A DNA stretch of 64,000 bases from an uncultured Candidatus Saccharibacteria bacterium (GCA_964616145.1 CAZTRD010000002.1:4553-68552), one strand, 5' to 3'. Positions 20,109 to 45,118 are shown, numbered from the stretch's first letter. The notes: generated by a model from the letters alone, not told the origin. Made by a program: numbers and translations.

Positions 20109-20281
20109 ACGATGGCTGTGTGCCCCGGTCTAGAACTTGTACCTATCAGGCCGTTAAAGGGTCCTTGAGCCATAATTCTATCCAAGGATTAACCCGTCTC
20201 GGTCGGGGTCCATATTTAGATTCTAGCATAAAATGAGACAAATGAGACACGGGAAGGGGGTATATCGAAGTGTCTCATTTT
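20109..20281 (+). repeat. about 173-nt repeat element, copy 1. Conserved blocks GCTGTGTGCCCCGGTCTAGAA and GACCCGTCTCGGTCGG, then a terminal 12-bp-stem hairpin AAAATGAGACAC...GTGTCTCATTTT preceded by a TGAGACA direct repeat
   Basis: About 80% identical to 44948-45118 in the same orientation. The hairpin stem is identical in both copies while the loop differs. Confidence 0.8.
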
Positions 20282-20318
20282 CCTTAAACTTCTAGATATA
20301 ATATAGCAAAATAGGATA

Positions 20319-20951
20319 TCATGAGAAAATATGGTGTGTCTCATTCTGAATTATCGAAGATATTCTTTTTATATGGTTTTCTGGTTTAATAAACTTATTT
20401 TTATCATGAACTACTTCCTTGTATTTTCTAACAAGAGATTGGCCCTCCTTTTTTCCTAAATGTAGTAAGATATATTGCCCTAAACCAAAAGGGAAATTAT
20501 TATCAAAACGGTCTGTACTAAAACCATAAGCATGCTGACTAAATATGGGGTGAAACTTACTAAATTTATAACCCGACGGACACCAAGTAGACCGTCTGGG
20601 GTGATACATGTGAAAATACAAAATATCCCAATGCTTGCCTTCCATACAAACAGTTTCATAAATATCAATAGGATCGTTTATTTTTTCGATATTCATAGAA
20701 TATAATCGATGACATAAAAGACCAGAACCGCATTCGCACCTTAACCTATTTAAATATTTTATTTCACCCAAAACCCCATTAACTGGAATGGGATTATCGG
20801 GACTATGACCAAAATCTTTTCTATCATTAAATAGAGAGTCGCAATCCTTTCCTTTAATTGCTAAAGAATAAAGTCCCGGGTGTTCCCTTTTCAGGTCTTC
20901 ATTTTGTTTTCCTAGAGATTCCTCAACAAATTTATTTTTTAAGAAATTCAT
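20319..20951 (-). CDS. hypothetical protein (Cys/His-rich)
   Basis: ORF only. Confidence 0.35.
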   Translation of the reverse strand: MNFLKNKFVEESLGKQNEDLKREHPGLYSLAIKGKDCDSLFNDRKDFGHSPDNPIPVNGVLGEIKYLNRLRCECGSGLLCHRLYSMNIEKINDPIDIYETVCMEGKHWDILYFHMYHPRRSTWCPSGYKFSKFHPIFSQHAYGFSTDRFDNNFPFGLGQYILLHLGKKEGQSLVRKYKEVVHDKNKFIKPENHIKRISSIIQNETHHIFS

Positions 20952-20969
20952 ATTATTAGCTAAGGCTAA

Positions 20970-21470
20970 CTAGATCTTTTTCTGCTTTTGGCTTGCTCCT
21001 CTAAAGAACGTTACCTCCCATTCCCCCTCCTCCTCTAGTTCCTCTTCTGAGTATTTGCTAATTTCTGCTCTTATTATTCTCTCTATCTTCTCCGATTCGG
21101 CCAACCCCTTCAGCATAAGATTTCCCGTACCCTTGACGCTAGGATTTATCTTATCTATCGTTTTGAAATACATGTTTCGTATTTCAACATCCGCTATTTT
21201 ACAAAGCACGTCAGCAAACGAATCATAACTTTTTATTTCTATTTTTTCTGATTTTTTATAAATAAAATTGCTGGCATTATCTTTATCTTCCAAAAATTCC
21301 CAATCCTTGCGATACGATAATGTCACCTTAACTAATTCATTAAAATTCACATCAGGATTCTGGGATTTAGCCCTAAAGATACCCGTCTTCATAGCAAAAA
21401 TTAACCCTTTAGCATAGCTGCTAACTTCTCTTTCTCTAATCCTACTAAAAATCTTGTTTAGAAAAGCCAT
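20970..21470 (-). CDS. hypothetical protein
   Basis: ORF only. Confidence 0.35.
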   Translation of the reverse strand: MAFLNKIFSRIREREVSSYAKGLIFAMKTGIFRAKSQNPDVNFNELVKVTLSYRKDWEFLEDKDNASNFIYKKSEKIEIKSYDSFADVLCKIADVEIRNMYFKTIDKINPSVKGTGNLMLKGLAESEKIERIIRAEISKYSEEELEEEGEWEVTFFRGASQKQKKI

Positions 21471-21667
21471 TTTGTTATTATGTTAAACTTTAATTGTGTC
21501 TTTTATTAACTCCCTTTTTTCTATTATCATCTAAAAGTATCGGGAGGGCAATGTTTGCACCTCTCATTTTCCTTGATTTTTAGATAAAATAGGGCGGGAT
21601 AAGACATTATAGATGAATATACTGTGTCTTATTTATTGCTTGGGAGTTGTAGGTTATTTTGATCTCA

Positions 21668-22258
21668 TTATGTCTTAATAATTTTATCTATTTGTTTCAA
21701 TTCTTCAGAAAAATGATTCGCTAATAAAAACATCCCCGAGAAAGATATAAAGTCATTAAAAACTGTCTTGCCTTGAAGCTTCCTATTTATTTCTTGGTTT
21801 TTCCATTTAATGATCTCATTTTCTTCTAATGTCCACTCCCCCTTTCTATTTTTAAAATAGAATTTATTATTGTGCGCTGCCCCATTCCTTATATGTCTTA
21901 AAAACTTGAATTCTTCTGCATTTTTGATGCCGTCACAATATTCTGAGAACAATAAGAGCTCATACGTGGATATTGCCATTATTTTCCCTATAACAATGGA
22001 ACTGTTTAGTACATTTAACTTTGAAGTATATCTATTATTAATATAATCAATTTCTATGTGTAAATTAACCCATTTGTTGTATTTATCTAACATAGACAAT
22101 AAATAAGGCGCTCCTACCCCCTTGCTTTTTACTAAGTCTTGGATATTCGGATCGGCTAATACGTTATTGGAAAAAATATAAAACCAAAAAATGTTTTCTA
22201 TATCCTGCAGAACTTTGTGAAAGCTCGTATTGATATCTAAATTAACTTTTTTATTCAT
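21668..22258 (-). CDS. HEPN-domain (Abi-like) protein
   Basis: RHIRNGAAHN contains the Rx4H HEPN motif in a helical context; 196 aa. Confidence 0.5.
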   Translation of the reverse strand: MNKKVNLDINTSFHKVLQDIENIFWFYIFSNNVLADPNIQDLVKSKGVGAPYLLSMLDKYNKWVNLHIEIDYINNRYTSKLNVLNSSIVIGKIMAISTYELLLFSEYCDGIKNAEEFKFLRHIRNGAAHNNKFYFKNRKGEWTLEENEIIKWKNQEINRKLQGKTVFNDFISFSGMFLLANHFSEELKQIDKIIKT

Positions 22259-22270
22259 GAATTATATTTT

Positions 22271-22780
22271 CTATTTATTATTGGGGGATTTAATAATCTC
22301 TTCGATACGAGTTCTGATTTTCTGAATATCGTAAGATGCAACACATTTAATTCTTAACAATGGTACTCCTGCGTTTTTAAATACATCTTCAACAAAATTA
22401 TCTCTATCTATTCTATTTTTATAATTGTGCGAATTATCATCTAGCTCTATGGCTAGCACAGGAGTTAGGTTATTCTTTTCTGCAAGTACAAAATCAACTG
22501 ATTTTCTATCTATTTTGTTAAAATATTTGTAGTATTCTCCCCTGCTTGATTTAACATAAACTAAATCTGATAAATGAACTTGGGGAAAGATATAGTACTT
22601 ATTTCCTATTGCTTGTTCCAATACTCTAAAAAATGATGTTTCTGCTTTAGATAGAAGATAATCCTTTTTTGAATATGGATATTTTGATTTGCCCTTCGCT
22701 TTTTTTATATAAACTAACAACCATAATGAAATTAGAATAAATAATACGGTAATAATAATGATTATTTCATTTTTATTCAT
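22271..22780 (-). CDS. DUF2726 (PD-(D/E)xK-like) protein with an N-terminal TM helix
   Basis: SVDFVLAEK...AIELDDNSH...RDNFV...AGVPLLRI follows the DUF2726 pattern. Confidence 0.55.
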   Translation of the reverse strand: MNKNEIIIIITVLFILISLWLLVYIKKAKGKSKYPYSKKDYLLSKAETSFFRVLEQAIGNKYYIFPQVHLSDLVYVKSSRGEYYKYFNKIDRKSVDFVLAEKNNLTPVLAIELDDNSHNYKNRIDRDNFVEDVFKNAGVPLLRIKCVASYDIQKIRTRIEEIIKSPNNK

Positions 22781-22795
22781 AAAAAAATAATTCTT

Positions 22796-23077
22796 TTATC
22801 CTTTTTCTAGAAATCGGGTACCAAGAGTATATCCTATGATCCCGCTCAAGATAGCTCCAGCAACTGCGCTATCTAAAATATTTAACACTGCTAATGCTAG
22901 CGTACCTACCGTCACAAAGATTATTGCTACGCTTTTTATAACGTTATCGGGAGTTAACCAAAGTTTTAATTCCCCGGTTGTTTTTCTCATCGTAACCATT
23001 AACCAACACCAGCAAACAGTGATGGCAAGAAGTGGGATGCCTAATATTATGATTAAAAGAGAAATTTTTGTGTCCAT
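22796..23077 (-). CDS. small three-TM membrane protein
   Basis: Hydrophobic, 93 aa. Confidence 0.35.
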   Translation of the reverse strand: MDTKISLLIIILGIPLLAITVCWCWLMVTMRKTTGELKLWLTPDNVIKSVAIIFVTVGTLALAVLNILDSAVAGAILSGIIGYTLGTRFLEKG

Positions 23078-23098
23078 ATTTTTATTTTAATTATTTTC

Positions 23099-23641
23099 TT
23101 ATTTTTTAGGACCTTCCAAAATTTGTAATTTATTCTTTTTCTCCTTGGCTCTAAGTTTTCTCGCCAGATAAAATGTCCCGTACTGTATAGATCGAAGTAA
23201 CGGATAGGAAGATTCATCTATCGCGCAATACCATGGATCTATTCTAGAAAGCTCATCTGCGATAGATGAAACAAATTCTGGGATAAGGATGGTTTTTATA
23301 CCATTACCCAGATCCATTTTTTTCTCGGAATTTTGGCGAGGAACAGAAAAACCCGTAATTGCTATTTTCTTTATTTTTTTCTTATTAAAACTAAATACTT
23401 CCTCATAATATTTTTCGGCATTTTGGAATTTCTTAGTAAACACCTTTTTCTTTTCTTTCCACGACCATGCATCAGTTGAACATTCAATGTGAATAAACTC
23501 TTTTGTTTTTGGATGGTATGCTATTACATCCATTTCTCCGATATGACCACCGTGTCCAGTTTTACCAAATCGGATGTTTGTTCGACAAAAATATCCCTTA
23601 TATTCATACCATTCAGCTGTTAATTGTTCTAAAAAATTCAT
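23099..23641 (-). CDS. hypothetical protein (possible nuclease-like fold)
   Basis: ORF only. Confidence 0.3.
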   Translation of the reverse strand: MNFLEQLTAEWYEYKGYFCRTNIRFGKTGHGGHIGEMDVIAYHPKTKEFIHIECSTDAWSWKEKKKVFTKKFQNAEKYYEEVFSFNKKKIKKIAITGFSVPRQNSEKKMDLGNGIKTILIPEFVSSIADELSRIDPWYCAIDESSYPLLRSIQYGTFYLARKLRAKEKKNKLQILEGPKK

Positions 23642-23680
23642 ATTATTAATTATAAAGCCTATTATTAATATTAAACCACT

Positions 23681-24310
23681 ATGAGCTTACCTAAACAAGC
23701 GATAAATGAATTTAAAGAGATTTATAAAGATCAATACAACAAAGAGTTAAGTGATGCTGAAGCTAGTGAAGCAGCTAATAATCTAGTAGATTTCTTTAAA
23801 CTTCTATACGATTGCCATATAAAAGAATTAAAAAGGAAAAGACGACTCAAAAAAGAACCTGAGGGGTTTCATCTAACCGATGGAGAATATAACTGTTGTA
23901 TTTGTCATAAACTGATTTCTAGAGAAGAAACATGGTATGACAAATGGGGTATCAAATGCCTATATTGTCAGAAAGCCGTAAAAGAAGGATTAATCCCCTC
24001 TTTTGTTTGCCATGATAGAGATAGTTGGTATGCAATGTGGGAATTAGAGAGTAAGTTTGGAATTAAAAATCAAACTGTAAGAAAATTAGTTAGAGAAGGT
24101 AAGCTTATAGCGAGAATAGTTCCATATGAAAATGGTAATCCCTATGAATATATCTTCTTAAAAAAGGAAAACTCTGATCTTATAGATCCGGATAGAAAAT
24201 CTCCGGCAAGAAAATCATATGATAAAAATTATAATAGGATTATGGATGCAAGAATTCGAGAGGAGAAGAAAAAAGAATATAAAATTAGTGGAAAAAATAT
24301 TTCATTATGA
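23681..24310 (+). CDS. hypothetical Cys-rich protein. Its N-terminal roughly 40-aa domain is paralogous to the 61-aa ORF at 28430-28615.
   Basis: INEFKEIYKDQYNKELSDAEASEAANNLVDFFKLLY vs LNKFKQIYKKRFNKDLSDQKALKKATRLLRLVEIVY; CCICH...CLYCQ zinc-ribbon-like motifs. Confidence 0.4.
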   Translation: MSLPKQAINEFKEIYKDQYNKELSDAEASEAANNLVDFFKLLYDCHIKELKRKRRLKKEPEGFHLTDGEYNCCICHKLISREETWYDKWGIKCLYCQKAVKEGLIPSFVCHDRDSWYAMWELESKFGIKNQTVRKLVREGKLIARIVPYENGNPYEYIFLKKENSDLIDPDRKSPARKSYDKNYNRIMDARIREEKKKEYKISGKNISL

Positions 24311-24313
24311 TCT

Positions 24314-25705
24314 TTATATTATTTTTCCCGCAAGATAGTTTCTAACAATATCATCAATTATCCTATCCTCAATACTGAGAAAATCAAATAGTTCAAATAA
24401 CGGCGTTGTGAATTTAAGCACTAAGTTGGTTGTGTTTTCCTCAATTTCTTTTATAGTTGTTACAATTGTAGTGCTGATTTGATTTTCTACACTTTTATAT
24501 TCAGAAGTAATTAGTCTGTTGCCAGTAGCACCCATGATTTTACCCTTTAATCCGCCGTGCTTTATGATTATTGTTATTAGTTCTTCCTTGCCTAGTTTAA
24601 GATTAGAATAGAGGTTTCTAGCATACATCAATGTTTCTGTTATTCTTATTGTTCTAGTATCAAAAAATAAATAGTTAGGCTTTCTTTTTTCTTCGAATAT
24701 GCTTTTTAGTAAATAAAAGGACCCATCTTGCTTAATTGACCAGTAATCAAAACTTTTATCTTCTTTTGTCGCTATCTCTGTAACTATGCCATCATCATTT
24801 GGTTTTGGGCTATATTCTCCATCTCTTGCGCCAGGCGCAATAGGCCAACCGAATGTATGTATCTGTGAATTAATGGCTGCGTCTCTTAATTCTCTTTTTG
24901 ATATATTCAAATTAGACATTGGAAGATACATCTTAATTTCCATAAAAATATCGATATCAAAAGCATGTAAATGCGCAAAAGCTTTTTCAATATTTTTATC
25001 AAACCAATTATTTGATTCCTCTCGAATTTCTTTCTCGATTGTTTCAAATTTTTCAGCTGTAATTGTTTTTATTTTTAATATTTCTTCTACTAGACCCTTG
25101 GTTTCTTCTTTACTTTTCATTTTAACTAAATCCCAAAGGCCTTCACAACCATAAAGAATATCTGACACAGCCATTGAAAGAACTTGCGGTTCTCCTTCCT
25201 TTCCTTTTTTATATAAATATTTTGTATCTTGAATTGCCCAAGCATTTCCCAAGATGGTTCTTGATTGTATCTCGCAATATAACTTTTCTTTATTTCCATC
25301 TATATCGAATTCTTTGGCGAAATTAAAATGATAAGCCCTGTATGGACCTTCATTCTTTTCTTCTGCCATTACATCAATAAATTGTTTTTTTAATTCTCCG
25401 AATAAAATATCGCGGATGGCTTCTCTATCACTTCGACAATGGCACGTTATTCTGTCACCAGCGATGTCTTTAATTTCTATTAGTTTACTTATTTTTTTAT
25501 ATTTTTTCGGATTTTCTCCAATATTTTTGATTATAGAATCAAACTCCTTAATTTTGTTATTTGGTCTTTGTGATACCTCATAGATATCTATCGATTCTTT
25601 CCTCTGTTCTTTGAACTTAGACAAAAAATCATAAACTTCTTGTTGTAGTTGTTCATAATAAGATTTATATTTCTCGTAATCTTTTTTTATTTCTTCTAAT
25701 TCCAT
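24314..25705 (-). CDS. RelA/SpoT-domain (small alarmone synthetase-like nucleotidyltransferase) protein with a long C-terminal extension
   Basis: IKDIAGDRITCHC and GPYRAYHF resemble the RSD synthetase motifs (DxxGxRIxC and YRSxH); 463 aa. Confidence 0.5.
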   Translation of the reverse strand: MELEEIKKDYEKYKSYYEQLQQEVYDFLSKFKEQRKESIDIYEVSQRPNNKIKEFDSIIKNIGENPKKYKKISKLIEIKDIAGDRITCHCRSDREAIRDILFGELKKQFIDVMAEEKNEGPYRAYHFNFAKEFDIDGNKEKLYCEIQSRTILGNAWAIQDTKYLYKKGKEGEPQVLSMAVSDILYGCEGLWDLVKMKSKEETKGLVEEILKIKTITAEKFETIEKEIREESNNWFDKNIEKAFAHLHAFDIDIFMEIKMYLPMSNLNISKRELRDAAINSQIHTFGWPIAPGARDGEYSPKPNDDGIVTEIATKEDKSFDYWSIKQDGSFYLLKSIFEEKRKPNYLFFDTRTIRITETLMYARNLYSNLKLGKEELITIIIKHGGLKGKIMGATGNRLITSEYKSVENQISTTIVTTIKEIEENTTNLVLKFTTPLFELFDFLSIEDRIIDDIVRNYLAGKII

Positions 25706-25776
25706 TTTCTTTTATACCTCAATAGTTTTACCTATTTGTTTTGATTCTTCAGAAAAACGATTCGCTAATAAAAACA

Positions 25777-27669: not shown

Positions 27670-27681
27670 TGATTCAGAGAT

Positions 27682-28332: not shown

Positions 28333-28429
28333 AGGTTATTTATTTTTAGGTTTTTCCTTATTAAATTTTAACTGCGGAATAAAAATCTTCGCTAATTTCT
28401 CGGCTGCTTCATCTCTCGATTCCTCTTTC

Positions 28430-28615
28430 TTATTTTGTATCTTCTCTTCTTTTTTGCAGGACATTATATTCTTTTTGAGTCATTGGTTTATAAACGATTT
28501 CCACTAAACGTAACAACCTGGTCGCTTTTTTTAAAGCCTTCTGATCTGATAGATCTTTATTAAAACGTTTTTTATAAATCTGCTTAAATTTATTTAATCG
28601 TTCCTCAGAAATCAT
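28430..28615 (-). CDS. small helical protein, paralogous to the N-terminus of 23681-24310
   Basis: See the 23681-24310 entry. Confidence 0.35.
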   Translation of the reverse strand: MISEERLNKFKQIYKKRFNKDLSDQKALKKATRLLRLVEIVYKPMTQKEYNVLQKRREDTK

Positions 28616-37341: not shown

Positions 37342-37434
37342 GTGTAGTACAGAAAATTCTTACACAAAGAATAATTAATTTTATAAGCTGGCATAATAAG
37401 CCAGTTTTTTATTAATTAAGACATTTATAAAACT

Positions 37435-38709
37435 ATGGAAAAACTTCAATGGCATAACGAAAAAAGAAAAGTTAATAGCCTTAAATATTATGGCAAAAAT
37501 CCTCGCATCATGCCGGATAAAAACATGAAAGATCTAACGAATAGTTTGCAGAAGATGGGCCTGGCGGAAATACCAGCAATTGATATTGACGGGACCATAG
37601 TTGCTGGAAACCAAAGAGTCAAAGCTCTTCAGGTTCTTGGTCGTGGTCAAGAAGAAATCGATGTAAGAATCCCTAATAGAAAACTTACAAAAACAGAATT
37701 TAAGTTCTACCTGCTCGCCAGTAATCGTATAAGTGGCCTCTGGGATTTTGATGCCTTAAAGACTAACTTTAATATTGAAACTCTCCTGGCAACCAGTTTC
37801 GACACAGAAGACCTTAGTAGAATATTTGATGATAATCTCGAAATAGAAGACGACCATTTTGATGAAAATACCGAGCTAAAAAAGATTAAGAAAACAGATA
37901 TTAAGCCCGGGGATTGTTTTGCTCTTGGTCGCCATCGCTTACTTTGCTCCAATGCCCTTGACCCTGCCACTGCTAAAACACTCATGGCTGGAGTCCAGGC
38001 AGATATGATTAATGATGATTTGCCTTACAATATCGGGCTTTCGTACGACAAGGGTGTTGGAAATAAGGGTCGCTATGGCGGAACAACAAATGACAATAAA
38101 AGCGATGAGGAATATAGGGCTTTTGTAAGGACGATCATGCAAAACGCTCTTTCAGTGGCAAAGACGGATGCGCATATATTTTTCTGGTGCGATGAAAGAT
38201 ACGTGTGGCTGTTTCAAGAGCTATATAAAGAATTCGGGCTTGATTCAAAACGCCTTTGCATCTGGATTAAAGATAATGCTTCCCCTACTCCGCAGATTGC
38301 TTTTAATAAGGTGACTGAGTTTTGCGTTTACGGAACCAGGGGCAGGCCATTCTTATCGGATAAAGTAAACAATCTGAATGAATTGTTAAACAAAGAGATA
38401 ACCAGTGGCAATAGATTGTCAGATGATATTTTGGATTTATTGAATATATGGCTAGTAAAAAGATTACCTGGTAATGAATATCAACACCCGACGCAGAAAA
38501 ATCCTCAGGTTCACGAAAAAGCTTTGCGACGCTGCACCCGTCCAGGCGATGCAGTTCTCGATTTAACCTGCGGATCTGGCAGTATTTTATCAGCTTGCCA
38601 TCAGCTTAAACGCAGAGCCTATGTTTGTGATTGCGAACCGATCTTCTGCCAGCTTACTATTAATCGTTTTAAACAAATCTCACATGACGAAATCAAGAAA
38701 CTTAATTAA
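37435..38709 (+). CDS. ParB-like nuclease domain fused to an N4/N6 DNA methyltransferase
   Basis: N-terminal ParB/Srx-like region (EIPAIDIDGTIVAGNQRVKAL), D-L-P-Y motif IV and C-terminal LDLTCGSGS motif I. Confidence 0.6.
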   Translation: MEKLQWHNEKRKVNSLKYYGKNPRIMPDKNMKDLTNSLQKMGLAEIPAIDIDGTIVAGNQRVKALQVLGRGQEEIDVRIPNRKLTKTEFKFYLLASNRISGLWDFDALKTNFNIETLLATSFDTEDLSRIFDDNLEIEDDHFDENTELKKIKKTDIKPGDCFALGRHRLLCSNALDPATAKTLMAGVQADMINDDLPYNIGLSYDKGVGNKGRYGGTTNDNKSDEEYRAFVRTIMQNALSVAKTDAHIFFWCDERYVWLFQELYKEFGLDSKRLCIWIKDNASPTPQIAFNKVTEFCVYGTRGRPFLSDKVNNLNELLNKEITSGNRLSDDILDLLNIWLVKRLPGNEYQHPTQKNPQVHEKALRRCTRPGDAVLDLTCGSGSILSACHQLKRRAYVCDCEPIFCQLTINRFKQISHDEIKKLN

Positions 38710-39454
38710 ATATGGAACAATCTTTAAGCTAGGCAACCATTACTTAGCATATGGCGATAGTCGCGATAAAGAATTGGTAGCACGGCTTGTTGGTCAATTT
38801 AAAGTCAAGGCTGTCATTTGTGATGTTCCATTTGGTATTGCCGTGGTTGAATCAAAAGAGAAATTTCAGCCACTTTCTAAAAACAAACCTATCATTAATG
38901 ACCATTTCCAGAGCGATGCAGAGTATCAGAAATTTACTCAGGATTGGATCGAAGGGATCAAGCCCCACCTTGCTAGAAAAAATGTTTTCTACATCTTCAA
39001 TTGCGATAAAATGATTTTTGCTCTGCGCCAAGGAATGATTCAGGCAGGATTAAAATTTGGACAACTTTTGATATGGGTTAAAACGCATGCTGTTTTAGCT
39101 CGCATGGACTATGCCCCGCAGCATGAGCTTATTGCTTATGGCTGGTATGGTACCCACGAATTTCTCAAATCAAAAGACAAAAGTATTATTGTGTATCCAA
39201 AACCCAATAAAAGTCCTAACCACCCTACCACAAAACCTATTGGCCTTATTCGCAGACTCATTCTAAACAGCACCTGGATCGGAGACGTGGTATTTGACGG
39301 GTTCCTAGGATCAGGCACTTGTTTATTGGCTTGCGAGCAAACCAAACGCATATGTTTTGGAGTGGAAATTGATCTAGAATATGTTGAAACGTCGATTCGA
39401 CAGTTCGAGGTATCAACAAACATTAAAGCAAAAATAATACATGAAAAAAGATAA
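38684..39454 (+). CDS. N4/N6 DNA methyltransferase; start probably at MTKSRN
   Basis: ICDVPFG motif IV and FDGFLGSGT motif I (beta-class order). Confidence 0.55.
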   Translation: MTKSRNLIKYGTIFKLGNHYLAYGDSRDKELVARLVGQFKVKAVICDVPFGIAVVESKEKFQPLSKNKPIINDHFQSDAEYQKFTQDWIEGIKPHLARKNVFYIFNCDKMIFALRQGMIQAGLKFGQLLIWVKTHAVLARMDYAPQHELIAYGWYGTHEFLKSKDKSIIVYPKPNKSPNHPTTKPIGLIRRLILNSTWIGDVVFDGFLGSGTCLLACEQTKRICFGVEIDLEYVETSIRQFEVSTNIKAKIIHEKR

Positions 39455-39845
39455 AACAAAAAACTTATTAATTGAACAGCTTAAAAAGACTCCCGTCGCA
39501 CAAATTGCCTGTGAAAAAGTTCAGGTTGCGAGAGCATCATTCTATCGCTGGAAAATTGAAGATAAGGAATTCGCAAAAGCAGTTGAGGAGGCATTACTTG
39601 AAGGAGAAACTTTTATTACAGAGATGAGCGAGTCACAACTAATTTCTATGATTCGAAATGGTAATTTTCAGGCAGTTCAGATGTGGTTGCGTCATCATAA
39701 TCCTAAATATGGTCAGAAGATAGAGATTTCGGGAAATATAAATCAACCACAAGAGGAATTAAATCCCGAGCAAGAGGCAGTGGTCCGGGAAGCCCTACGT
39801 CTTGCATCATTACTCCCCGAACAAAAATCAGAAGAAAACAATTAA
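39441..39845 (+). CDS. terminase small subunit-like HTH protein
   Basis: Small helical protein directly upstream of terminase large subunit; ASFYRW-type HTH. Confidence 0.4.
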   Translation: MKKDKTKNLLIEQLKKTPVAQIACEKVQVARASFYRWKIEDKEFAKAVEEALLEGETFITEMSESQLISMIRNGNFQAVQMWLRHHNPKYGQKIEISGNINQPQEELNPEQEAVVREALRLASLLPEQKSEENN

Positions 39846-39863
39846 TTAAATTTAAATAAAAAT

Positions 39864-41345
39864 ATGACAGAAATAGACTATCAACAACTTCTCAAAAAGT
39901 ACAATTGTAATCACCTATCTTTAGATTTGGTGGAACGAATGATAAAAGATCGCAAAATCCGTACTGCAATCTGCAAACAAAGTTTCTTTATATTTTTTCA
40001 TTTTTACTTTGCCCATTACGTGAAATATATGACAGCCTCATTTCAGCGCGAAATATTTCATCTCGTAGAGCAGGAAAAAGACAAAAATCTTTTTGTGATC
40101 GCTTTCAGAAATTCAGGGAAATCAACGATTCTTACAACCGCCTATCCTATCTGGGCAATTATTGGTAACCAACAGAAAAAATTCGTATTGATACTTTGCC
40201 AGACAAGAAGTCAAGCAAAACAACACATGATGAATTTAAAACGAGAACTTGAAGGGAATCAACTTCTCAAAGATGACCTTGGGCCCTTCAAGGAAGAAAG
40301 CGATGAATGGGGTTCAACCTCTCTCGTTTTTGCTAGATTAAATGTGCGCATTACCGCAGCCTCAACCGAACAAAGCATCAGAGGATTGAGACATGACCAG
40401 TATCGTCCAGATCTTATTATCGGAGATGATGTTGAAGATCTCAATTCGACCAGAACAATGGAAAGCAGACAGAAAACCTATCAATGGCTCACTGGTGAGG
40501 TGATCCCAGCCGGAGACAAGAGTACTAGGCTTATTATTGTTGGTAATCTTTTACACGAAGATTCGCTCCTTATGCATCTAAAACATGACATAGAAGAAGA
40601 ACGAATTAACGGTTTGTTCAAAGAATATCCACTGTTTGATAAACAAGGAATAATTGCATGGCCGGGAAAATATGCTACCGAGAAAGATATTGAAAATGAA
40701 AAGAAAAAATCCGGGGACGAAATTGCCTGGCAGAGAGAGTATCTTCTCCGCATAGTTTCTGACGCCGGAAGAGTCGTTCATCCCGAATGGATCCATTATT
40801 ACGATTACGATAAAGATCTTCCAAACGACGAACATTTTATTCAAACTTACGTTGGCGTTGATTTAGCGATATCCGAGAAGGATAGCGCACATCGTACAGC
40901 TATTGTTGCAATGAAGATTTATCGACGAGAGGATAGGGACTACGCATATGTCATGCCCTTCCCCTTTAACGATACTATAGGGTTTCCAGAACAAGTAAAT
41001 CAAATAAAGCTACTAGTGTCAGATACTAAGAAATATCGTTATCCGAGAATCTTTGTTGAAAAAGTTGCATATCAAGCATCTATTATCCAGCAGTGTCAAA
41101 ATTTAGGTATTGTGATAGAGGGAGTTCCTCCGCATGGAGATAAACGTGAGAGGCTTGCGCTTACTACCGCAGCGATAAAAGAAGGGCTTATTCTATTTCC
41201 AAACAAAGGAGCAGAGGAACTTATCGCTCAGCTTACTGGATTTGGTACAGAAAAGTATAACGATTTGGCAGATGCATTCTCGTTGGTTGCAAATCAATTT
41301 ATAGCCTATTCTAATCAATCTGGACCAATGCTTACAATTTTTTGA
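39864..41345 (+). CDS. phage terminase large subunit
   Basis: Walker A FRNSGKST, Walker B LIIGDDVED, C-terminal RNaseH-like nuclease (VGVDLAIS). Confidence 0.7.
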   Translation: MTEIDYQQLLKKYNCNHLSLDLVERMIKDRKIRTAICKQSFFIFFHFYFAHYVKYMTASFQREIFHLVEQEKDKNLFVIAFRNSGKSTILTTAYPIWAIIGNQQKKFVLILCQTRSQAKQHMMNLKRELEGNQLLKDDLGPFKEESDEWGSTSLVFARLNVRITAASTEQSIRGLRHDQYRPDLIIGDDVEDLNSTRTMESRQKTYQWLTGEVIPAGDKSTRLIIVGNLLHEDSLLMHLKHDIEEERINGLFKEYPLFDKQGIIAWPGKYATEKDIENEKKKSGDEIAWQREYLLRIVSDAGRVVHPEWIHYYDYDKDLPNDEHFIQTYVGVDLAISEKDSAHRTAIVAMKIYRREDRDYAYVMPFPFNDTIGFPEQVNQIKLLVSDTKKYRYPRIFVEKVAYQASIIQQCQNLGIVIEGVPPHGDKRERLALTTAAIKEGLILFPNKGAEELIAQLTGFGTEKYNDLADAFSLVANQFIAYSNQSGPMLTIF

Positions 41346-41424
41346 AATTAGATCAAAAAATTTATTAAACAAGCGGCAAAAATAATCAAGAATTTACTAA
41401 CTGTAACGGTCTGGACTTACTCGC

Positions 41425-42780
41425 ATGGTTGCGTCATCCTTGCCTTGTATGAATACACCAACCATAGGGCTACCAGGGGCTATAGCCCAAACACATATCC
41501 AAGCCCCAGAAAAGGTAAAATATGTGCTTTATGCTCGTAAATCGACCGAATCTGACGAAAAACAAGCCCTTTCCGTGGACTCACAGATAAAAGAAATGCT
41601 TCAAATAGCAGAAAGAGAGGGTTTAGAAATCGTTGATATCCGCCGAGAATCCCATTCAGCCAAAGATTCCGGCCAAAGACCTGTGTTCAACGAGATGATA
41701 AAAGATATCCGAAGTAGTAGATATACCGGGATTTTAACTTGGGCACCGGATCGACTTTCCAGGAACGCCGGCGACCTAGGGGTGTTGGTCGACCTTATGG
41801 ATCAAAAATTATTGGTAGAAGTAAGAACATTCGGCCAAAGATTTACAAATTCGCCAAGCGAAAAATTCTTGCTCATGATTCTCGGAGCCCAAGGCAAACT
41901 GGAAAACGACCAAAAAAGCGTGAATGTAAAACGAGGATTAAGAATGAGAGTAGAAATGGGTCTTTGGCCTAGCACTGCCCCAACGGGCTATCTTAATGAA
42001 AAACGTATAGATAGAAAAGGCTATGTGATGACTGATCCAGAAAGATCCTCTGTTATCAAGCAAATGTTTGAAAAAGTTGCGTACGAAAAATGGAGCGGTA
42101 GAAAAATATATCATTGGTTAAAATTTGACCTAAATTTCAGGACTAAAAGTAATCATCACCTATCGTTGAGTAACGTTTATCTCATTCTTCAAAATCATTT
42201 CTACTATGGCATATTTGAATTTCCCAGAAAAAGTGGCAATTGGTATACTGGAAAACATCAACCAATCATTAATCAAGCTTTATTCGATGGAGCTCAAGAA
42301 CAATTAAAAAGAGACATTCTTAAGCACGAAAGCAAAGAATTTGCCTTCACCAAGTTGATGAAATGTGGATTGTGCGGTTCCGGAATTACCGCTGATGAAA
42401 AATTCAAGAATCTAGTTGATGGATCAACAAGACGGCATGTTTATTATGGGTGTACCAAAAGCAAGGATAAGAATTGCAAGTGCGGTTATATCAGCGAGGA
42501 AAGTCTAATTGAACAACTTGTTAAGATTATAGATGATATCAGTTTAGATGAATTGGGTATAAAAAAGACATTGGAAGAAGATATCAAGAAATATTATAAA
42601 TTCAAACAAATTGTATTGGGATTAACTGATAAAGACGATTTAGCAGTTAAAGAAATAGATATCAAGAATTACGTAAAATATATCCTAAAAGAAGGTAGAA
42701 TCTTTGAAAAGCGAGATATTCTTGATAATCTTAAGAGTCGGTTGGTATTAAAAGAAAAGCAAATTTATCTGGAAAAATAG
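41425..42780 (+). CDS. large serine recombinase/integrase
   Basis: YARKSTESDEKQALSVDSQ catalytic-Ser resolvase N-domain, a recombinase domain and a C-terminal zinc ribbon (CGLCGS...YYGCTKSKDKNC). Confidence 0.75.
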   Translation: MVASSLPCMNTPTIGLPGAIAQTHIQAPEKVKYVLYARKSTESDEKQALSVDSQIKEMLQIAEREGLEIVDIRRESHSAKDSGQRPVFNEMIKDIRSSRYTGILTWAPDRLSRNAGDLGVLVDLMDQKLLVEVRTFGQRFTNSPSEKFLLMILGAQGKLENDQKSVNVKRGLRMRVEMGLWPSTAPTGYLNEKRIDRKGYVMTDPERSSVIKQMFEKVAYEKWSGRKIYHWLKFDLNFRTKSNHHLSLSNVYLILQNHFYYGIFEFPRKSGNWYTGKHQPIINQALFDGAQEQLKRDILKHESKEFAFTKLMKCGLCGSGITADEKFKNLVDGSTRRHVYYGCTKSKDKNCKCGYISEESLIEQLVKIIDDISLDELGIKKTLEEDIKKYYKFKQIVLGLTDKDDLAVKEIDIKNYVKYILKEGRIFEKRDILDNLKSRLVLKEKQIYLEK

Positions 42781-42997
42781 GTAGGGATTAGATATAATAG
42801 TAGTATTAACAATCTATGTTGCCTAAACCTCGTAAGAGGCATGGCACAAAAACCGATCAAGGCATTAAGCTCGTCGTCAGAGCGCCTTGATCGGTCATAG
42901 CTCGAAAGGGTTATGGGTGGTCGTAAGACCATCGCTGGCGGCGAGCTTTATGTTATGCCACCGAAAAAAGTCATATAAATTTAATTAATAAAAACAT

Positions 42998-43312
42998 ATG
43001 GGAATTTGGAAAACCTTAAACACAAATACAAAAGAATTAGCTAATGGATTGGATAAAAAAACTAAAGGGCCTAAGGACATAAAAGAAACAAAGTGTACAT
43101 GTAGCGCTTGCGGAAATATTTGGTATTATGGCAAACAAGAAGCTTGGGAGCAGAAATCCAATGTCATGAGCAATGCTGGAAAATCAATGATGTGCTGCAG
43201 TGGCTGTCTACCAGCACTTTTAATCTCTCGCAAAAAAACTATGGATCTTGATAAATGCTCTAAGTGTGGATCAAGGGCGGTTAAAAAAGAGGAAATAATA
43301 CATCATGTTTAA
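42998..43312 (+). CDS. small zinc-ribbon protein
   Basis: CTCSACGN...CSKCGS. Confidence 0.3.
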   Translation: MGIWKTLNTNTKELANGLDKKTKGPKDIKETKCTCSACGNIWYYGKQEAWEQKSNVMSNAGKSMMCCSGCLPALLISRKKTMDLDKCSKCGSRAVKKEEIIHHV

Positions 43313-43523
43313 TATAATCATTTTCGCAATAAAGATTTATCAGAAATTAATTTCTCCAATATTGAAACGTATGGGAGTAAGATGTCGTTTTTATCCAACT
43401 TGTTCCCAATACTCGATAATGGCTATCAAAAAATACGGCCTACTAGTTGGTACGCGAAAAACATATTTCAGATTAAAAAAATGCAGACCAGATAATCTTG
43501 ATAGTTGCATAGATTTTCCATAA
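43305..43523 (+). CDS. yidD: membrane protein insertion efficiency factor YidD
   Basis: CRFYPTCSQYSIMAIKKYG matches the YidD signature. Confidence 0.7.
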   Translation: MFNIIIFAIKIYQKLISPILKRMGVRCRFYPTCSQYSIMAIKKYGLLVGTRKTYFRLKKCRPDNLDSCIDFP

Positions 43524-43538
43524 ATAATAAAAAATTAA

Positions 43539-44615
43539 ATGGCTATAATCATCTCAAAAAACGGTAAAAATGCTAAGAAGATTGATAAATCAGCTTTCGA
43601 AAAAGAGGATTATCTACAGAGATATATTCAAAACAACCCCGAAAGCATACCTCTTTACGACATTAAAGAAGATATTCATCTTTTAATTTTAGCGAGAGAA
43701 TTCTCTACAGATAGCGGTCCGATTGACGCATTGGGAGTGGATAAGGATGGTGAAATTTATCTCGTAGAAACCAAGCTTTACAAAAATCCCGATAAAAGAT
43801 TAGTGGTTGCCCAAGTTTTGGACTATGGTGCTTTTCTCTGGCACTCTTATAATAATTTTGACGAATTAGCTAGGATTTTAGATGAAAAAGTGAATAAAAA
43901 ATTTGGCATAGGTCTCAACCAAAAACTTAAAGATTTCTTTAAAATTGATGATGAGGAAATTTTGATTCTAATCGAAAGCTTTAAAAAGAATCTCAATGAA
44001 GGAAATTTTAAATTCGTCGTACTAATGGATAAATTACATAATCAGCTAAAAGATCTGATTATTTTTATCAATGAAAACAGCCGATTCGATATTTTCGCGG
44101 TAGAAATGGAATATTATAAATATGATGATTATGAAATAATGATTCCTAAATTATTCGGGGCAGAGGTTAAAAAAGACATTGGAGTTTCATCATCCAGCGC
44201 CAGAAGAAAATGGGAAGAAAAGAGTTTTTTTGAAGATGTCGTGGCAAATCTAAGCGAAGAGGAAATCGATGCGGTAAAAAAACTATATGAATTTTCTAAA
44301 AATAATGCAGAGCATATAAGTTGGGGGACGGGAGTTGCTCGTGCGTCTTTCAGTGTAAAATTTTCAAGGATTAGCGAAACAAAATCTCTTTATACGGTTA
44401 AGAGTGATGGCAAATTAAGCCTCAACTTTGGATGGCTTAATGCTAATGATATAGTTATTAGATACAGAGACAATTTTAAAAACATACTAGAAAAAGAAAA
44501 ATTATTCTCTATCCCGAAAAATTATAAAACTCTTTCTCCTGGATATAAAATAGATGTTTGGTATAAAAAAACTGATGAGTTTATTAAAGCGATAGAAGGT
44601 TTAATAGAAAAATAA
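43539..44615 (+). CDS. hypothetical protein with a PD-(D/E)xK-like core (DALGVDKDGEIYLVETK)
   Basis: Motif only. Confidence 0.35.
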   Translation: MAIIISKNGKNAKKIDKSAFEKEDYLQRYIQNNPESIPLYDIKEDIHLLILAREFSTDSGPIDALGVDKDGEIYLVETKLYKNPDKRLVVAQVLDYGAFLWHSYNNFDELARILDEKVNKKFGIGLNQKLKDFFKIDDEEILILIESFKKNLNEGNFKFVVLMDKLHNQLKDLIIFINENSRFDIFAVEMEYYKYDDYEIMIPKLFGAEVKKDIGVSSSSARRKWEEKSFFEDVVANLSEEEIDAVKKLYEFSKNNAEHISWGTGVARASFSVKFSRISETKSLYTVKSDGKLSLNFGWLNANDIVIRYRDNFKNILEKEKLFSIPKNYKTLSPGYKIDVWYKKTDEFIKAIEGLIEK

Positions 44616-44947
44616 TTCGGGCGTGTAAGAACATCTAATAGTGAACGCTTTTTTAGTTTAATCTACACCATAAATTAAACTATCGAATTTGAGCATTCTC
44701 TACCACTGAAAAACTTATTATAAAACTAAAACCGGCTGGAGTGCAGCACTTGTTATATTGCGCTACTTAACGCAGCACAGCACAACAGAACGCATCGCAA
44801 TTCCAACCGGCAATTTTATTTTACCAACTCAATAACACTTGTCAAGATTCCAACTCTTCATCTTGATATTTTCATGTCTAAGGATGACAGTGTAATTTAT
44901 CTTCTGGCAAGCAAAACTACCCCTCCCGGTCGCCAGAACGATGCTCA

Positions 44948-45118
44948 ACGATGCTGTGTGCCCCGGTCTAGAATTTACACCTATCAAGTCATAGAGGGTC
45001 TTCAAGTTATAATTTCATTCAAGATTTGACCCGTCTCGGTCGGAGCATATATTTCAATTCTAGCACAAAATGAGACAAATGAGACACAGGAAAGGGATAT
45101 ATTGGGGTGTCTCATTTT
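44948..45118 (+). repeat. about 171-nt repeat element, copy 2, directly abutting high-GC island B
   Basis: See 20109-20281. Confidence 0.8.

Follow-up and report, generated by a model that had tools for sequence, protein, structure and literature searches.

Paired 170-base repeats in a Candidatus Saccharibacteria genome are most likely the ends of mobile DNA islands rather than a folded RNA gene

Organization of the locus

The window analysed here is the whole 64,000-nt stretch of DNA from an uncultured Candidatus Saccharibacteria bacterium. A unit of about 170 nt occurs in it twice, at 20109–20281 (copy 1) and 44948–45118 (copy 2), in direct orientation and with 80.9% identity over 173 nt (blastn E 9e-41), in agreement with the roughly 80% given by an earlier, sequence-only reading. 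A profile search of the whole window with the body of the unit found exactly two body copies. Each copy consists of a body, which opens with ~25 nt that mimic a tRNA gene 3' end, and a motif. The features of the locus are as follows.

20109–20135, plus strand: 5' block of copy 1, mimicking a tRNA 3' end (ACGATGGC TGTGTGCCCCGGTCTAGAA), with 21 nt identical to copy 2; proposed junction and crossover core
20136–20211, plus strand: rest of the copy 1 body, ending in the 3' block ACCCGTCTCGGTCGGGGTCC (20192–20211); homologous to ~55 bodies, with no conserved fold
20220–20228, minus strand: extended -10-like box TGCTAGAAT, read from the sequence and also kept in copy 2, oriented leftward to the body and to the DUF4352 gene, whose ATG is at 20098; putative promoter element
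20230–20281, plus strand: copy 1 motif, AAAATGAGAC AAATGAGAC AC-N19-GTGTCTCATTTT, with two direct half-sites and one inverted
20282–44919, no strand assigned: cargo of proposed element 1, from Pfam, PHROGs and homologs beside the motif elsewhere
20337–20345, minus strand: extra inverted half-site AATGAGACA, the fourth exact one, ~105 nt from the start of the copy 1 motif
23681–24310, plus strand: homolog of the "c0" protein (Zn-ribbon/HTH), 77% identical to the protein of locus L091
41425–42780, plus strand: large serine recombinase (LSR), candidate integrase, with Resolvase, Recombinase and Zn_ribbon_recom domains
42820–42933, plus strand: LOOT RNA (Rfam RF03000), starting 40 nt past the LSR gene, with a score of 93.8 bits (gathering score 46.4)
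44920–44952, plus strand: left flank of copy 2 (CCCCTCCCGGTCGCCAGAACGATGCTCAACGAT), which would form the right end of element 1; only weakly like the tRNA-Gln 3' flank "site0"
44948–45118, plus strand: copy 2, with 5' block (44953–44973), 3' block (45028–45046), TGCTAGAAT box (45058–45066, minus strand) and motif (45067–45118)
45119–47734, minus strand: cargo of proposed element 2, a GC-rich DUF7897 gene and an HNH endonuclease, identical in the independent assemblies L123–L125
45190–47013, minus strand: GC-rich DUF7897 gene, with its own terminator hairpin at 45128–45161
47210–47725, minus strand: HNH endonuclease
47735–47767, plus strand: site0 (CCTCTCGGACTTTCTCGATACTACAACCTGATT), the conserved tRNA-Gln 3' flank, colinear with flanks in other loci
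47768–47839, minus strand: intact tRNA-Gln(CTG), found by ARAGORN and Rfam, its 3' end facing the islands

The claim that the two copies bracket a defence and phage-like region was borne out by gene annotation. The cargo of proposed element 1 comprises small unknown ORFs, the Zn-ribbon/HTH protein, RelA/SpoT-like, UvrD, PD-(D/E)XK and ClpP-like proteins, a type ISP restriction–modification gene, SNF2, a ParB-methylase, a methylase, terS, terL, the LSR and three small genes. No tyrosine integrase was matched among the window proteins scanned against Pfam. The loci L073, L156 and L158, each with a related element, contain a LOOT RNA as well. The c0 homolog gave no Pfam or PHROG match; in L091 the c0 protein starts 74 nt after the start of the motif, and c0 genes lie directly beside the motif in several other genomes. 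The tRNA-Gln, 2.65 kb to the right of copy 2, is proposed as the anchor of the islands and the original attB.

The proposed association of the repeat with boundaries of GC-rich islands holds for copy 2, which adjoins island B, and fails for copy 1 and as a general link. Three supposed fragments of the unit (60906–60928, 59190–59212 and 59440–59452) proved to be generic TGCTAGAAT or TAGAAT -10-like boxes rather than copies of the element; each lies just upstream of a minus-strand gene start or a GC-rich ORF, and only 60906–60928 was marginally significant (E 7.5e-4).

Anatomy of the repeat unit

The blocks described as common to both copies were recovered as exact matches, namely GCTGTGTGCCCCGGTCTAGAA (20115–20135 and 44953–44973), ACCCGTCTCGGTCGG and AAAATGAGACAAATGAGACAC with GTGTCTCATTTT. 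The 3' block repeats the CGGTC core of the 5' block in the same orientation, and among the body homologs the two blocks co-vary as direct repeats. The motif has the general form AAATGAGAC AAATGAGAC AC-N19-GTGTCTCATTT, and its 18-mer recurs without change in more than 119 species genomes, nearly all of them from Patescibacteria. It forms an array of the 9-bp half-site AAATGAGAC, with two direct copies and one to three inverted ones. The window contains eight exact AATGAGACA sites, seven of which lie inside the two copy clusters, and a half-site at about +105 recurs in other motif loci.

The half-sites fall into classes of the form TGnnACA. Outside the GAGACA class, both direct copies carried the same dinucleotide in 25 cases, against 7 in which they differed, and the inverted arm matched the dinucleotide of the direct copies in 11 of the 25. 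This covariation fits sequence-specific recognition by a trans-acting factor, most simply a protein, and the c0 homolog would be a candidate for such a binder; a covarying direct repeat also exceeds what a hairpin alone explains. The right arm of the hairpin was absent in 46 of the 126 motif loci, and the TATA-rich spacer between the arms measured 7–12 or 17–22 nt across loci.

Related loci and linkage to tRNA genes

Among about 14 metagenome loci with a 5' block and a usable right flank, eight had an intact minus-strand tRNA-Gln 0.8–3.3 kb to the right of the body (L126, L128/L142, L131, L134, L145, L151 and L152), as does copy 2 of the window; the chance rate is estimated at below 1% per locus. 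The gene order body, tRNA-Gln, FtsX, FtsE is kept in L151 and L152, as in the window. Relative to the conserved flank and terminator, the 5' block of related loci occupies the exact position of the tRNA-Gln 3' end; site0 aligns colinearly with the tRNA-Gln flank of L151 and L152 and with the 5' block flank of L131, L133, L139 and L143, and in L126 one 45-nt flank precedes both the 5' block and the tRNA-Gln 3' end (43/45 identical). In other families the first 7–12 nt match the end of the downstream tRNA (12/12 for Lys in L112, 8/8 for Met in L027, and the Ser loci). The 19-mer of the 5' block, identical in 27 metagenome loci, matches the resident tRNA-Gln at only 11 of 20 positions, and is therefore taken to be under its own constraint. 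Some long loci (L136, L141) lacked a tRNA-Gln within 5–10 kb.

Cargo is variable and confined to the right side of the motif, and includes LSR, ParB-methylase, terminase (terS) and defence genes, a UvrD-like helicase and the c0 protein. An LSR was found within 4 kb in only 14 of 126 motif loci, eight of them at most 250 nt from the module. LSR homologs from IMG/VR share the backbone ParB-methylase, methylase, terS, terL and LSR. Six viral contigs with such homologs (58–67% identical) contained neither body nor motif, and two of the six have a minus-strand tRNA within 120–150 nt beyond the LSR gene (tRNA-Gln in L158, tRNA-Asp in L153). An independent tandem array in L131 has the layout of the window, with two modules 3.1 kb apart, site0 before the second, and then tRNA-Gln. 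One viral contig and two unrelated genome contigs share a 120-nt module at 100% identity, and the sequences to its left and right are unrelated among them. Neither an excised form nor an empty site turned up for this strain; its other assemblies (L123–L125, L148) are identical to the window.

Interpretation as integrative elements

Taken with the anatomy, distribution, tRNA linkage, cargo and absence of RNA structure of the unit, these data are read as follows: each copy is the tRNA-distal junction and terminal arm of an LSR integrative element, an interpretation regarded as probable by somewhat more than an even chance. The earlier suggestion of a target, carrier or att site thus survives in modified form, since the unit marks the tRNA-distal island end in many genomes and LSR genes abut it. 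The family, widespread in Patescibacteria, would insert at the 3' end of a tRNA gene, here tRNA-Gln, and would use, or at least travel with, an LSR, the presumptive catalyst. The unit would start with a few nucleotides of the true tRNA 3' terminus, continuing into the 5' block as a mimic of the T-arm and acceptor strand carried by the element, followed by an unstructured arm of ~80 nt that closes with the second CGGTC-type block, and then by the half-site array. The latter may be bound by an element-encoded protein, either the Zn-ribbon/HTH protein at 23681–24310 or the recombinase with a directionality factor.

In the window, the proposed tandem order is host DNA, copy 1 with element 1 (~20.1–44.95 kb, LSR at 41425–42780), copy 2 with element 2 (45.1–47.73 kb, DUF7897 gene and HNH endonuclease), and tRNA-Gln (47768–47839). 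Copy 2 was probably already resident when element 1 inserted at its imitation tRNA end. The likely crossover core is the identical ACGATG(G)CTGTGTGCCCCGGTCTAGAA, 21–27 nt at the left ends of both copies, and the remaining ~80% similarity would be that of two related left arms. The sequence-only reading, which took the copies not to be simple attL/attR sites, would be right in the sense that they look like homologous left arms of two tandem elements.

Several observations count against an LSR element. LSRs normally need only a 2-bp common core and sites of ~40–50 bp, and are not known to employ long arms or arm-type repeats; a homologous unit of 170 nt with an identical 21-nt core looks more like a tyrosine-integrase system. 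The ~13 loci with a body and no motif, the scarcity of LSR genes near motif loci, the motif-free viral LSR contigs, the long loci without tRNA-Gln, the lack of an empty site and a 19-mer that is constant yet unlike the resident tRNA-Gln weigh in the same direction.

Alternative explanations

An unlikely, mainly regulatory unit would overlap with the integrative-element interpretation and depart from it solely in the role of the motif: it would hold outward-facing and inward-facing promoters and AAATGAGAC operator half-sites for an element-encoded repressor or regulator such as c0, with recombination taking place elsewhere, for instance at only the first few bases of the 5' block. In seven loci (L014, L035, L091, L032, L062, L011 and L093) a c0 or LSR gene starts 70–225 nt past the start of the motif and reads away from it, but in the window 3.4 kb separate the c0 homolog from copy 1, no gene of this kind follows copy 2, and in many loci the first neighbour is a minus-strand cargo gene. 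Promoter-like sequences were found in the TGCTAGAAT box of both copies, in the TATA-rich spacers, in TATAAAAAGG, which follows the motif in ~30 loci, and in a plus-strand match of copy 2 (TTGACC-16-TATATT); these matches are weak and unconserved in position, and boxes of the TGCTAGAAT type are also found where unrelated minus-strand genes begin. The class-wise covariation of direct and inverted half-sites is of the kind seen in operator–repressor pairs, the operator role of the half-sites being putative.

A small non-coding RNA gene at the island ends, on either strand, is distinctly improbable. On the plus strand it could be an sRNA whose 5' part resembles a tRNA, with AUGAGACA as a repeated seed and the hairpin as terminator; on the minus strand it could be a leader of the left-hand gene. 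The unit has sharp boundaries, the 120-nt module recurs unchanged in unrelated contexts, the 18-mer is shared exactly by more than 119 genomes, many loci have a terminator adjoining the body on its left, and the minus-strand DUF4352 gene has copy 1 immediately upstream; the genes that follow the body, however, are unrelated from locus to locus. The "structured" character ascribed to the repeat is confined to its 3' hairpin, which, as described, has identical 12-nt arms and a diverged 19-nt loop in the two copies; it has an A-tract and a U-tract and folds modestly better than shuffled sequences (z -1.8 and -2.4). The ~100-nt body folded no better than shuffles on either strand (z -0.46 to +0.48), no consensus fold or covarying helix was found among 32–45 body homologs (RNAalifold ~0 kcal on both strands), and an Rfam scan of the unit gave no match even at E up to 10. 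Where the right arm is missing, no replacement terminator was detected (4/41 loci, against 1–2/41 control regions), and the variable loop (7 to 22 nt) and the covarying direct repeat likewise speak against an RNA. The proposed structured ncRNA family was consequently not supported, nor was an omega-RNA or a retron, there being no TnpB, IscB or RT gene nearby.

Very improbable is a non-autonomous, MITE-like cassette or an integron-type (attC-like) site that moves or captures cargo, including GC-rich genes. The co-varying CGGTC-type repeats flank the body, the module occurs with unrelated flanks, a GC-rich gene directly follows copy 2, and modules alternate with cargo in L131 and the window; yet the unit lacks terminal inverted repeats, occurs only once or twice per contig in a single orientation relative to cargo and tRNA, and no integron integrase was found. 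The other GC-rich islands of the window contain no copy, only TAGAAT boxes, and the repeats beside the body share a consensus and mimic a tRNA terminus, unlike arbitrary target duplications. Scarcely credible is a conserved host intergenic element, for example a degenerate paralog of tRNA-Gln and the adjoining flank, that was segmentally duplicated and lies near islands by coincidence: ordinary-looking genes lie to the right of the motif-free bodies, and the 5' block together with site0 lines up colinearly with the tRNA-Gln locus, but the module is present in viral contigs, LSR genes abut it, cargo is hypervariable on one side only, and the 19-mer is conserved though it is not a functional tRNA end.

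Comparison with known systems

Island ends beside a tRNA gene, as in the integrative-element interpretation, are a familiar kind of feature, seen here in a bacterial group that has been little studied. Integration sites in tRNA and tmRNA genes are reportedly covered by Williams' surveys. As in such islands, prophages and tandem arrays, an intact tRNA at one end points its 3' terminus toward the island, the distal junction is a partial or imitation tRNA 3' end, an integrase lies near one end, and successive elements with defence and phage cargo are each bounded by repeats. Here, in contrast, the associated recombinase is an LSR and not a tyrosine integrase, the distal repeat is unfaithful, only its first 4–12 nt matching and the rest being a conserved imitation, and the 170-nt unit extends far past the tRNA-like part.

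SCCmec-type composite islands are inserted by the Ccr LSRs at the 3' end of rlmH (orfX), and share with the present locus LSR-linked elements in tandem at one conserved site, repeat-delimited modules and variable cargo. Unlike SCCmec, the target is a tRNA gene, the repeats measure 170 nt at 81% identity instead of 15–18 bp, a 9-bp half-site array is present, and paired ccrA/ccrB genes are absent. Several short direct and inverted repeats, putative protein sites, within ~150 bp of the crossover region at an element end recall lambda-type attP arms. Arm-type sites are a feature of tyrosine integrases, none of which was detected here, and the binding of the half-sites is putative.

The 43-bp imperfect palindrome AAAATGAGACAC-N19-GTGTCTCATTTT resembles in size and symmetry the attP and attB sites of phiC31, Bxb1 and A118 (PMC3556126, PMC12286644), and an LSR gene often adjoins it, as at the sites of phage large serine integrases. 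In contrast to phage attL and attR, both window copies are symmetric and not hybrid; the spacer is odd-numbered and variable in length, the right arm is often missing, and there is an extra direct repeat. The ncRNA motifs of mobile elements (LOOT RF03000, DUF3800; Weinberg et al. 2017, PMC5737381) are likewise conserved intergenic sequences in mobile or defence regions of uncultured bacteria; they differ from the repeat unit in their conserved secondary structure and Rfam match, and a true LOOT RNA lies in the same element.

The repeat unit and its two copies

The two direct copies of the repeat, copy 1 (20109-20281) and copy 2 (44948-45118), were confirmed, being 80.9% identical across 173 nt (blastn E value of 9e-41 within the window) and sharing the exact blocks GCTGTGTGCCCCGGTCTAGAA, ACCCGTCTCGGTCGG, AAAATGAGACAAATGAGACAC and GTGTCTCATTTT, as the sequence-only reading had claimed. 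The unit consists of a body of about 100 nt, which starts with a 5' block imitating a tRNA 3' end and ends with a 3' block, and of a motif in which two direct 9-bp half-sites are followed, across a spacer, by an inverted arm (the right arm of the hairpin). A profile built from homologs detected exactly two bodies in the 64 kb, copies 1 and 2, and seven of the eight exact AATGAGACA 9-mers of the window (about 0.5 expected per whole window under a uniform model, by our arithmetic) fall into two clusters, one at each copy.

Features of the two copies and of the fragments proposed at 59-61 kb
20115-20135 and 44953-44973: shared block GCTGTGTGCCCCGGTCTAGAA, exact in both copies
20232, 20241, 20271 (minus strand), 20337 (minus strand): AATGAGACA cluster at copy 1
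45069, 45078, 45108 (minus strand): AATGAGACA cluster at copy 2
20220-20228 and 45058-45066: extended -10-like box within copy 1 and copy 2, respectively
60906-60928: proposed fragment, adjoining on the upstream side the ATG (60908) of the minus-strand gene 59826-60908; minus-strand reading TTTTGTGCTAGAATAAATATATG
59190-59212 and 59440-59452: proposed fragments, TAGAAT-type boxes ahead of minus-strand ORFs

The stretches at 59-61 kb that had been regarded as fragments of the same element are not copies of it, and their common part is a generic extended -10-like box. The association with boundaries of GC-rich islands holds for copy 2, which adjoins such an island, but for copy 2 only, and a general link is unsupported. 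The GC-rich islands (45119-47013, 59213-59440, 60930-61300 and also about 7.0-7.5 kb; approximately 45-55% GC, compared with 33% for the genome) hold minus-strand genes, the largest encoding a DUF7897 protein, and the first three each close with a terminator hairpin rich in GC; all give the impression of foreign genes that were acquired separately. The gene-free gap 44615-44850 (minus strand), between the end of the ORF 43539-44615 and copy 2, contains a strong match to a minus-strand promoter (TTGACA-16-TAAAAT with TG, 44845-44818).

Distribution and covariation of the motif

The 18-mer ATGAGACAAATGAGACAC was found in 3 IMG/VR contigs and, among the matches listed, in more than 119 species-representative genomes, nearly all of them Patescibacteria/CPR MAGs, a count that gives the spread of the motif and is no measure of conservation, because an exact match was required. 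In five Dehalococcoidia MAGs (L042, L046, L050, L070 and L071) the 18-mer lies within a repeated ORF-like element (translated ..KMRQMRHV..) with an inverted arm 35-37 nt off; this is a separate family, in a context unrelated to the Patescibacteria unit. About 55 of the 126 motif occurrences have a body of about 100 nt, homologous to that of the window, 0-70 nt upstream of the motif, and among the remaining loci others have a shorter body and some present motifs of other classes in tandem. The literature yielded no account of the motif, nor of elements pairing a large serine recombinase (LSR) with a tRNA in Patescibacteria, and the repeat is genuine and a member of a widespread, apparently undescribed sequence family.

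Across loci, forward half-sites occupy positions +1 and +10 and inverted ones about -30 to -45, +25 to +40 and approximately +105, with none beyond approximately +105 or -45 of the motif. The spacer from GAGACAC to the inverted arm is bimodal (27 loci with 7-12 nt, 44 with 17-22 nt), and 46 of the 126 occurrences lack this arm. Paralogous site classes follow the pattern TG-nn-ACA, where nn is AG, GG, GC, TT, CA, GA or CG. When cases outside the GAGACA class were counted, the same dinucleotide was present in both direct repeats in 25, versus 7 in which it was not, and the exact inverted arm of the matching class followed in 11 of those 25. This three-way covariation of direct repeats and inverted arm is as expected from recognition by a sequence-specific factor acting in trans, most simply a protein, and a hairpin alone is insufficient to explain it.

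Tandem arrays of two to four motif modules of differing classes (GGCACA, GGGACA, GTTACA, GCAACA and GAGACA), 60-150 nt apart and gene-free between, were seen within a few hundred nt of a GAGACA motif at eight loci (L006, L051, L052, L064, L068, L092, L106 and L110). At least the partial order GGGACA then GAGACA is common to L051, L052 and L110, with GGCACA before these in L052 and L110. Such modules could be a composite binding platform or the scars of successive elements.

The motif may also be regulatory, as a promoter or operator of the first genes of an element, a function that may coexist with a role in recombination. A T7/SP6-type promoter was set aside for GAGACACTATA: it resembles the SP6 core, but the TATA beside the arm is missing in many loci, and an RNA polymerase of the single-subunit type was not seen. 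Sites of the dif/Xer, parS, oriC and cos types were rejected by reasoning alone, on consensus or position.

Linkage to tRNA-Gln

A metagenome scan with the query TGTGTGCCCCGGTCTAGAA returned 27 loci, and the body was present in all of them. A GAGACA motif follows the body in 7 of the 27, the window's own strain among them, and a variant motif in 3, while approximately 13 have no motif at all and ordinary right-hand neighbours. An intact minus-strand tRNA-Gln gene was located 0.8-3.3 kb to the right of the body in 8 of the approximately 14 loci with a usable right flank (L126, L128/L142, L131, L134, L145, L151 and L152). With one or two tRNA-Gln genes per genome of about 1 Mb, we estimate chance linkage at well below 1% per locus. 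The tRNA-Gln gene is followed by FtsX and FtsE in L151 and L152, as in the window, where the corresponding features are:

47735-47767: site0, the conserved 3' flank of tRNA-Gln, adjoining it
47768-47839, minus strand: tRNA-Gln(CTG), intact, 3' end toward the island, +2.65 kb from copy 2

In L152 a terminator is followed by ATCTCGGTCTCTCGATACTACGAGCTGACT and then by GCTGCGGGGCTTGGATTCGAACC of the tRNA, and in L133 a terminator is followed by GCGTCTCGGTCTCTCGATACTATGAGCTGACTT and then by GCTGTGTGCCCCGGTCTAGAACC of the body, the flank being that seen as site0 in the window; in L126 a 45-nt flank is duplicated, before the body and before the tRNA, with 43 of 45 positions identical. The 5' block occupies the place of a tRNA 3' end. 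Read from sequence, its geometry on the minus strand (GG, a 7-nt loop, 5 nt, 7 nt, one nt and often CCA) is kept across body families, and a T-arm-like hairpin, CCCCGG-TCTAGAA-CCGGGG, can form in several members. Identity to the resident tRNA is confined to the first 4-12 nt (12/12 for Lys in L112, 8/8 for Met in L027, and TGGCGG at the Ser loci) and amounts to 11 of 20 positions overall for the window's block and its tRNA-Gln, which indicates that the 5' block imitates a tRNA end and does not copy it. An origin as a copy of a neighbouring tRNA-Ser was likewise rejected, the first few bases alone matching the cognate downstream tRNA. Conservation of the 5'-block 19-mer is stricter than a mere relic would show.

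The window's tRNA-Thr(CGT) and tRNA-Gly(CCC) genes (51267-54490) are 3.1 kb apart, compared with 7 nt in L151 and 0.9 kb in L152, and the DNA between them includes an AT-rich ORF and, at about 51.5-52.5 and 53.9-54.3 kb, two stretches rich in GC. The gap has the appearance of a further hot spot of insertion, 3' of a tRNA, that lacks the repeat unit.

Cargo and recombinase

Hypervariable cargo lies to the right of the motif and ordinary genes to the left, where a Rho-independent terminator often adjoins the body. Genes recurring on the right include the LSR (14 loci), the Zn-ribbon/HTH protein c0 (18 loci), a ParB-methylase, a terS-like gene and a UvrD-like helicase, and the interval between the two window copies contains the same gene set:

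23681-24310: c0 homolog, 77% identical to the L091 protein
UvrD-like helicase
37435-38709: ParB-methylase
methylase
39441-39845: terS
39864-41345: terL (PHROG 38, E = 4e-73)
41425-42780: LSR, 2.1 kb from copy 2
defence genes: type ISP R-M, SNF2, RelA/SpoT-like, PD-(D/E)XK

The LSR gene is less than 250 nt from the unit at 8 loci, directly after the motif in L011, L032, L062, L093 and L094 and ending at the left edge of the body in L015, L018 and L099; it is within 4 kb at a minority of motif loci only. Homologs of the window's LSR, 58-67% identical, were detected at six loci on five IMG/VR viral contigs, where they close the backbone ParB-methylase, methylase, terS, terL, LSR. A minus-strand tRNA with its 3' end toward the LSR follows within 120-150 nt at two of these six loci (tRNA-Gln(CTG) in L158 and tRNA-Asp in L153), and the L158 sequence between LSR and tRNA (..CCTGACTTAGCATATGG) is also found in L129 and L147, immediately to the left of their 5' block. 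Neither body nor motif was present in the viral contigs with LSR homologs, a caveat on tying the LSR clade of the window to the unit.

A 120-nt module (short body plus motif) is 100% identical in the viral contig L003 and in the unrelated genome contigs L018 and L043, with unrelated flanks on both sides. In L003 (IMGVR_UViG_3300020195_001307) sequence repeats directly after 9,117 bp, with 100% identity across at least 5.3 kb, and this contig may be a concatemer or assembly of a circular element of about 9.1 kb that carries the short module and RNR-like, NUDIX and ParB-methylase genes. The LOOT RNA (RF03000) of the window (42820-42933, plus strand) is 40 nt downstream of the LSR gene and is also found in L073 (4697-4823), L156 (5469-5583) and L158 (3454-3581), on contigs with the ParB-methylase/terS/terL/LSR backbone, which suggests that this orphan RNA motif is part of the mobile-element family in question. 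Many intergenic sites of related metagenome contigs (L131, L132, L134, L136, L141, L146, L150 and L152) have a terminator hairpin that is nearly identical among them, AAAAAACCGCC-loop-GGCGATTTT, like a REP-type terminator family.

Proposed arrangement of tandem elements

Most likely, the unit forms the boundary and arm of integrative elements that have accumulated one beside the other at a tRNA gene. On the simplest account, the element family would insert at the 3' end of the tRNA gene, and the tRNA-distal junction would read host flank, a few bases of tRNA terminus, element left arm and cargo, the left arm comprising the imitation T-arm/acceptor, a body of about 80 nt and the half-site array. 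The window would then run from host genes (starting with PriA and YchF and reaching to the DUF4352 gene) through copy 1 and element 1, to about 44,950, and on through copy 2 and element 2 (the GC-rich DUF7897 and HNH genes) to site0, tRNA-Gln, FtsX, FtsE and the release factor.

Three observations were counted for this tandem reading. L131 has the same two-module layout as the window; where L151 and L152 have a single body, 2.1-2.5 kb away from tRNA-Gln, the window additionally contains a further module and 24.8 kb of DNA inserted at the resident body's left edge; and the longest perfectly identical stretch of the two copies, ACGATG(G)CTGTGTGCCCCGGTCTAGAA, lies exactly at their left edge. A shared crossover core would be at this stretch, and the rest of the 81% similarity would come from homologous left arms in the two related elements. 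We infer the catalysis of insertion by the LSR, the crossover position at the left edge of the copies and the identity of the half-site-binding protein. The proposal is poorly matched by the presence of the LSR near a minority of loci, by the approximately 13 bodies without motif, by the strictness of the 19-mer and by arms that are unusual for large serine integrases.

Evaluation of an RNA product

The proposal of a structured RNA was not supported. The hairpin of both copies folds modestly better than shuffled sequences (z of -1.8 and -2.4), but the body has no such fold, the 100-120-nt bodies of the window giving z values of -0.46, -0.39, +0.39 and +0.48 on either strand. An Rfam scan of both copies yielded no family, even at E values up to 10, where only chance matches to 6A and MEG3 appeared; over the whole window it returned RNase P RNA (63016-63379, minus strand), the LOOT RNA, three tRNAs and nothing else, and the window, both copies and 24 related loci together gave LOOT, RNase P and tRNAs only. 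Covariation analysis supported no consensus structure in the body homologs: RNAalifold on 32 aligned sequences gave -0.45 and -1.3 kcal on the two strands, essentially zero, all column pairs of a 45-sequence profile alignment contained no helix of at least 3 pairs with real variation and just trivial 3-bp runs of conserved bases, and per-sequence folding of the first 42 alignment columns gave a mean z of -0.24. A structured RNA product of the unit finds no support in these results, and a small RNA gene of any kind is an improbable reading.

It is very improbable that the unit is a guide or decoy RNA resembling a tRNA end and carried by mobile elements across Patescibacteria. Were it one, the two co-varying CGGTC-type blocks and the repeated AUGAGACA motif may help steer the LSR to its tRNA target, so that a family of recombinases regarded as protein-only would have a step assisted by RNA, or the RNA may titrate an RNA-binding factor of host or phage. 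A riboswitch-type leader or structured RNA was rejected for want of an Rfam family and of body structure and because the downstream genes are unrelated among loci; a plus-strand sRNA with terminator, because a replacement terminator is not carried by the loci lacking the right arm (4 of 41, versus 1-2 of 41 control regions). A full tRNA gene was not detected by ARAGORN, acceptor stem and T stem both failing to close properly, and tmRNA, SRP RNA, 6S and 5S, considered on sequence features, had no Rfam or ARAGORN support. A relation to TnpB/IscB omega-RNA or retron RNA was not borne out, with no Rfam match and no TnpB, IscB or RT gene adjacent; the neighbours of the copies are a DUF4352 protein, small ORFs without assignment, a DUF7897 protein and an HNH endonuclease. 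A DUF3800 gene (16774-17604, minus strand) lies two genes left of copy 1; several RNA motifs accompany DUF3800 genes (PMC5737381), and the Rfam scan of the window placed none by this one.

Significance

Annotation of Patescibacteria genomes is poor, and the limits of mobile and defence cargo are difficult to draw in them. If the unit is indeed a boundary and arm sequence, an imitation tRNA end followed by AAATGAGACAAATGAGACAC would be a simple signpost of island boundaries in these genomes, and an LSR family would exist that targets tRNA gene ends and tolerates tandem accretion. The practical interest of such LSRs and of the sites natural to them lies in their use as tools for integration, and the class-wise covariation of the 9-bp half-sites provides a natural specificity series for their binding protein, whichever it is. 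The unit adds no new class of structured RNA and leaves the GC-rich islands elsewhere in the window unexplained.

Comparison with known element classes

As in tRNA-targeting integrative elements, an intact tRNA stands at one end with its 3' end inward (in the window and 8 related metagenome loci), and a site-specific recombinase gene, the LSR, is near an end in the window and related loci. The distal repeat of the tRNA end agrees in position and geometry and in its first 4-12 nt, whereas beyond these it is a conserved imitation (11/20 to the resident tRNA-Gln). An empty site was not found: the strain's other assemblies are all identical to the window, and exact-protein lookup of the flanking genes returned identical assemblies or nothing.

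An att site of a large serine integrase is an imperfect palindrome, about 40-50 bp long and centred on a dinucleotide; attL and attR each combine halves of attB and attP. The unit has a 43-bp palindrome, but both copies are symmetric and alike, the spacer is 19 here and 7-22 over the loci, and the right arm is often missing. No requirement for long arms or arm-type repeats is known for large serine integrases (PMC12286644, PMC3556126).

The suggestion of a MITE-like element was not upheld, as terminal inverted repeats are absent and the 64 kb contain just two copies, with a single copy on most contigs among the matches listed; moreover, the repeats flanking the body follow a consensus, unlike the arbitrary target-site duplications and many dispersed copies of MITEs. 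Integrons are recognized by an IntI tyrosine integrase, an attI site and an attC site after each cassette; an attC or gene cassette was rejected, no tyrosine integrase having been detected among the window proteins scanned with Pfam and the other GC-rich genes lacking the unit. As a boundary and arm sequence the unit would be of a familiar kind, and its less usual traits are the serine recombinase, the imitation tRNA end and the class-wise covarying 9-bp array.
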